Shown here one piece after another: positions 7,685-12,209 of a stretch of DNA of 64,000 bases (its first letter is position 1; the number at the start of each line of letters is the position of its first letter). The position numbers and the translations under genes were made by a program. The notes under the pieces were generated by a model. It was not told where the DNA came from, did not search any database, and saw only the letters and a program-made list of their open reading frames with translations. Source of the stretch: Mobula birostris (lineage: Eukaryota); assembly GCF_030028105.1 (NCBI RefSeq), contig NC_092377.1, positions 117,762,632-117,826,631 of the forward strand, given 5' to 3'.

Positions 7685-12209
<4,525 letters not shown>

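Follow-up and report, generated by a model that had tools for sequence, protein, structure and literature searches.

The window, meaning the whole 64,000-nucleotide stretch of the Mobula birostris genome analysed here (NC_092377.1, positions 117,762,632 to 117,826,631 of the forward strand), carries three trypsinogen genes on its plus strand, referred to as genes 1, 2 and 3, of which gene 1 encodes glutamate at residue 192. The elements of the three genes are as follows:

7685..7724, plus strand: exon 1 of gene 1, signal peptide, agreeing with the start of the RefSeq protein (P0036)
8309..8468, plus strand: exon 2 of gene 1, activation peptide ending SDDDK, followed by a GC donor
8326-8337, plus strand: DDDK in exon 2 of gene 1
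from 8338, plus strand: IVGG in exon 2 of gene 1
8455-8457, plus strand: His57 in exon 2 of gene 1
8963..9213, plus strand: exon 3 of gene 1, with catalytic Asp102 at 9081-9083
10401..10537, plus strand: exon 4 of gene 1, with Asp189 intact at 10526-10528
10475..10480, plus strand: Trp174-Arg175 (codons TGG AGG) on the S4 side of the cleft, where genes 2 and 3 have Gly-Met
10487..10492, plus strand: Lys178-Asp179, where genes 2 and 3 have Asn-Asn
10535..10537, plus strand: Glu192 codon GAG, closing exon 4; genes 2 and 3 have CAG (Gln) here
12060..12209, plus strand: exon 5 of gene 1, with Gly193, Asp194, Ser195 (12066-12068) and the stop codon
12120..12122, plus strand: Asp217, the counterpart of Asp218 in human PRSS1 (cationic trypsin); genes 2 and 3 have Tyr
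29124..32786, plus strand: gene 2, a conventional Gln192 trypsinogen paralogue, with exon 4 (32005-32141) ending TGC CAG
50761..54555, plus strand: gene 3, a conventional Gln192 trypsinogen paralogue, with exon 4 (53774-53910) ending TGC CAG

Exon 4 of gene 1 closes with TGC GAG at 10532-10537 (plus strand) ahead of the donor gtacag, a difference from genes 2 and 3 that an earlier reading of the sequence without database searches (the sequence-only reading) had pointed out correctly. The junction between exons 4 and 5 is in phase 0, exon 5 begins GGT GAC TCT GGC GGA CCA (Gly-Asp-Ser-Gly-Gly-Pro), and the product reads DSCE-GDSGGP, which places the glutamate at 192 between Cys191 and Gly193 in pig trypsin/chymotrypsin numbering. 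The mature protein is identical to RefSeq XP_072122110.1 (Mobula birostris, P0036), a match that is not independent support because the record may derive from the same assembly. The trypsin domain (PF00089, E=3.2e-77) is the single domain of the protein and is collinear with pig trypsin, and it is preceded by a signal peptide and an acidic SDDDK-IVGG activation peptide. A structure model of zymogen length (pLDDT 72.7, medium) returned trypsins in all of its best 50 PDB rows, which confirms the fold only. By every sequence test run, gene 1 belongs to the vertebrate trypsinogen family (S1A). Its identity to vertebrate pancreatic trypsins (PF00089; for example dogfish TRYP_SQUAC and human PRSS1) is 60-69%, and it resembles them in its five exons, DDDK, catalytic triad and Asp189 pocket. 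The His57-Asp102-Ser195 triad, the oxyanion-hole Gly193, and Asp189, Ser190, Trp215, Gly216 and Gly226 are all unchanged; the label "digestive" given to the enzyme earlier is drawn from homology.

Genes 2 and 3 are contained in a tandem duplication of about 22 kb with 96-98% identity (19539-42429 and 42622-64000), in or near which lie three N gaps of 130-139 bases each. Two degenerate trypsin-like copies on the minus strand, at about 26150-27700 and at 49119-49334, face genes 2 and 3 head to head; in the former the catalytic motif is altered (GDSESP) and the last exon is frameshifted. All three trypsin genes use a GC donor in a GC-AG intron 2 (8469-8470, 29930-29931, 51565-51566). They also share the E-box CAGCTG (7591-7596 in gene 1) and a GATAAG motif. 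At 7630-7635 gene 1 has GATAAA versus TATAAA in genes 2 and 3, which may mean lower expression. Intron 4 of gene 1, and of no other copy, holds a LINE fragment at about 10600-11560, which we take to be of the CR1 type (RVT_1, E=2.3e-5, below the curated cut-off); a 76% similar copy sits immediately upstream of the gene at 6332-7295, and the intronic LINE may limit gene conversion around exon 4. Additionally, a 10-base AG...GC micro-exon at 10293-10302, 31893-31902 and 53662-53671 is needed by RefSeq GADY isoforms, in which it follows exon 3 (for example P0001); these isoforms may be an annotation artefact, since the GADY peptide equals a human trypsin loop.

Glu192 proved to be confined to one lineage in the proteins surveyed. 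The survey covered 277 proteins, taken as best matches by similarity (34 of 34, the best 120 of 2982 and the best 120 of 448), and a filter on length and start retained 235 of them and removed 42. With the five records that represent the two Mobula orthologues set aside, Gln192 was found in 230/230 other vertebrate trypsins aligned among these best matches. A motif count over all 277 proteins found glutamate in those five records and in no others, nine proteins being without the motif. Among the 56 other elasmobranch records, isoforms included, a group in which the sequence-only reading had proposed looking for Glu192, 54 had Gln192 and two were without the motif. Trp174, Asp179 and Glu192, which set gene 1 apart from vertebrate pancreatic trypsins, each occurred in 0/215 non-Mobula trypsins among the best matches. 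A search of PDB sequences with the 24 residues around 192 matched trypsins, with Gln in 5/5 of the alignments shown, of 60 rows. Among 205 Asp189 domains of distant S1 proteases, a 50%-representative set of mostly multi-domain enzymes that serves as background only, six carried Glu192 and four Asp192; acidic residues at 192 (10/205) are thus uncommon but not unheard of. One skate record, P0078 (Leucoraja erinacea), has an activation peptide that ends in VDVN before IVGG and therefore lacks the usual enteropeptidase site. No paper on gene 1 or on Mobula trypsins was found in the open-licence literature.

The Glu192 observation stands in gene 1, and it extends to a second species. The Mobula hypostoma protein XP_062895095.1 (P0038), which is independent of the assembly of the window, also has Glu192, and a base error is accordingly unlikely. 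A tree built from 21 elasmobranch trypsins that the authors selected, one isoform per gene, placed this protein and gene 1 in one clade with 100/98 support. The two orthologues differ at eight other positions and are therefore separate sequences; Trp174, Asp179 and Glu192 are nonetheless kept in both.

Glu192 did not arise by itself. At 23 residues gene 1 departs from genes 2 and 3 alike, and exon 4 accounts for 13 of these. When the changes were polarised with seven further Mobula genes and two from Hypanus, nine residues proved unique to the two-species clade: Lys60, Gly153, Arg166, Trp174, Arg175, Asp179, Ile183, Glu192 and Asp217. Residue 174 lines S4, and Gln192 forms a hydrogen bond with the inhibitor backbone close to P2. 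Four of the nine residues (60, 175, 192 and 217) fall among 29 inhibitor-contact positions, which Trp174 adjoins; this enrichment (p=0.017, hypergeometric; p=0.003, variability-weighted) is to be read with a contact list that was applied after the changes had been seen. In the alignment, Asp217 corresponds to the human PRSS1 aspartate that becomes residue 218 after a 14-residue isoform insert is subtracted, and the two enzymes share it. A sister paralogue in Mobula has 14 residues unique to its own clade, four of them unseen in 215 trypsins among the best matches, so odd residues are not peculiar to gene 1. This paralogue, which lies outside the window (P0166, P0167), has Lys70, Arg225 and Asn228 at positions near-invariant in trypsins, in both species; in its exon 1 and in Leu41 and Glu49 it is similar to gene 1, which suggests that its history is mosaic.

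The biochemical background comes from coagulation proteases and from human trypsin. According to PMC2230226 and PMC8146069, Glu192 of thrombin disfavours Kunitz binding, and its replacement in E192Q raises the affinity for BPTI and TFPI and promotes cleavage of substrates with an acidic P3 residue; in factor Xa, acidic residues at P3 and P3' repel the Q192E variant. PMC2230226 also names the 60-loop insertion of thrombin as a major barrier besides Glu192; gene 1 is without this insertion, and the size of the thrombin effect is therefore not transferable to it. Thrombin structures with P3-Asp peptides, as described in PMC7338465, display no clash, and the acidic-P3 clash model is disputed accordingly. 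The two properties that the sequence-only reading had attached to Glu192 of these proteases thus have backing in the literature, with the aversion to acidic P3 residues being contested. PMC5487703 reports that Asp218 of human PRSS1 repels the tetra-Asp activation motif and curtails autoactivation; PMC10339233 and PMC8532158 provide further background on mechanism. Because Asp217 of gene 1 aligns with PRSS1 Asp218, it backs slow autoactivation more directly than Glu192 does. Human PRSS1 has Asp217, yet its complexes with BPTI and SPINK1 have been solved, so this residue by itself is no block to inhibitors. The earlier proposal of reduced inhibitor binding and poor cleavage of DDDK is therefore partly supported: the thrombin background of Glu192 speaks for it, but it left out the absence of the 60-loop and the co-derived Asp217, Trp174, Arg175 and Asp179. 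Since these four residues were derived together with Glu192, an E192Q revertant alone, as had been suggested, could mislead.

Our inclination, held somewhat above even, is that gene 1 encodes a trypsin that is active on Lys/Arg sites, has a reshaped S2-S4 cleft, binds canonical inhibitors less strongly and autoactivates slowly. The gene would be an intact trypsinogen duplicate of the Mobula cluster, and the remodelling of its cleft would predate the separation of M. birostris from M. hypostoma. Once activated by enteropeptidase, the enzyme would still cleave after Lys or Arg. Glu192 and Asp217 would give the S2-S3 groove an acidic residue on either wall, and Trp174 would crowd S4; together, the acidic groove and the crowded S4 may loosen the binding of canonical Kunitz and Kazal inhibitors. 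The enzyme would also disfavour sequences that are acidic at P2-P4, the trypsinogen activation peptide among them, which could slow autoactivation. The enzyme would then play a role akin to that of the minor inhibitor-resistant trypsins of mammals, mesotrypsin and rat P23, reached by other substitutions and exercised beside ordinary Gln192 paralogues.

Mesotrypsin (PRSS3) and rat P23 are inhibitor resistant according to PMC5413004 and PMC13409851. Gene 1 is like them in being a paralogue with a changed near-invariant residue beside Ser195. However, mesotrypsin relies on Arg193, whereas gene 1 has Gly193, and gene 1 carries Tyr39, Thr74 and Tyr97 where a PRSS3-type record has Ser39, Lys74 and Asp97; the origin of gene 1 is independent of that of mesotrypsin-type trypsins, and it may be the ray counterpart of the inhibitor-resistant trypsins of human and rat. 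The closest precedent would be rat P23, which probably has Asp at 192 and would then make an acidic residue 192 a known route in a digestive trypsin. Four rodent trypsins (P0211, P0236, P0242 and P0248) show Met or Tyr193 with Asp217, a combination similar to that of gene 1. Thrombin and activated protein C, according to PMC8146069, have Glu192 with an Asp189 pocket as gene 1 does, but their 60-loop insertion, light chain and Gla, kringle or EGF domains are absent from it. The likeness to these proteases is convergence at single residues.

The chief alternative is relaxed constraint, in which gene 1 would be a redundant copy, perhaps with weak expression, that has drifted since the tandem expansion, and Glu192 a tolerated C-to-G change of little physiological meaning. 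We regard this as a serious though less probable rival, and the divergence data bear on it in both directions. Between genes 1 and 2, dN/dS is about 0.8 (0.79) over the whole gene and 0.3-0.55 in the exons other than exon 4. In exon 4 it reaches 2.1-2.3, which is not significant (Fisher p=0.22-0.26); the comparison with gene 2 alone gives 15 nonsynonymous and two synonymous differences (dN/dS 2.13, p=0.26). All such pairwise counts also take in changes on the lineage of genes 2 and 3. Nonsynonymous differences are nevertheless denser in exon 4 (15/109 sites) than in the other exons (14/427, p=1e-4), and exon-4 dN exceeds divergence over whole introns (p=0.005-0.006), but the excess disappears against the 300 intron bases directly upstream (p=0.20), where local divergence is 0.109 versus 0.124 in exon 4. 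Selection on exon 4 of gene 1 is thus suggested and not shown, and the closeness of these last two values, together with the non-significant dN/dS tests, fits drift. So do the altered TATA box of gene 1, the unusual residues at otherwise conserved positions of the sister paralogue, and the presence of at least five annotated trypsin genes in M. birostris. Against drift, the frame, the 12 cysteines, the triad and the pocket are intact in both Mobula orthologues, the changes of gene 1 cluster round the cleft, and dN outside exon 4 is low (0.02-0.04 versus dS of about 0.07), which argues for continued purifying selection.

A bolder form of the preferred reading, a remodelled and inhibitor-evading trypsin, holds that positive selection in the filter-feeding manta and devil rays independently produced an inhibitor-resistant, autoactivation-poor enzyme, through Glu192 as in thrombin, Asp217 as in human cationic trypsin and a new Trp174, against the protease inhibitors of zooplankton prey. 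This appears unlikely. The link to filter feeding is drawn solely from taxonomy, and the basking shark has Gln192 in all three of the trypsin records examined.

It is less probable still that gene 1 encodes a processing enzyme of narrowed specificity, in which Leu99, Trp174, Glu192, Asp217 and added surface arginines would select for substrates with a basic P3 residue instead of serving inhibitor-evading digestion. Thrombin and factor Xa have an acidic residue 217 and a large hydrophobic residue 174; acidic 192 and 217 and a large hydrophobic 174 in gene 1 follow the same pattern, and its net charge has moved to -6 from the -10 of genes 2 and 3. However, gene 1 keeps Pro225, has neither the 60-loop insertion nor extra domains, has a promoter with the same E-box and GATA motifs as its paralogues, and yields a structure model whose best 50 matches were all trypsins.

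Finally, the public contigs were examined for the base itself. Among contigs from four sequencing runs, none had G at 10535, and the single contig spanning that position had C, but this contig extends into the intron of the paralogues. A contig of run X1 matched gene 1 with 0 differences over 10230-10532 and ended three bases before 10535; low-depth contigs of organisms B and C contained a gene-1-type exon 4 with the Trp174-Arg175 codons and ended at 10483 and 10527. The only 31-mers common to the gene copies are those starting at 10503 and 10504. Those starting at 10505 or later make up 27% of the query, in agreement with the 29% of words absent from the best runs, so the gene-1 branch from 10533 on, which leads into the LINE, was presumably lost from the contigs as a whole. 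An assembly or consensus error hiding a true C at 10535, favoured by the lone C contig and the missing G, is very improbable given that missing branch, the paralogue intron of the C contig and the Glu192 of M. hypostoma.

If the predicted biochemistry fails, gene 1 would be an ordinary drifting duplicate. Genes 1 and 2, about 90% identical, form a natural pair in which the parts played by residues 192, 217 and 174 in inhibitor binding and in autoactivation could be told apart, a matter still debated for thrombin. Should the reading as a dietary adaptation be true, gene 1 would offer a natural test of the effect of Glu192 free of the 60-loop of thrombin. If the biochemistry holds, the manta and devil rays would provide another independent vertebrate origin of an inhibitor-evading trypsin, by a route unlike that of mesotrypsin.
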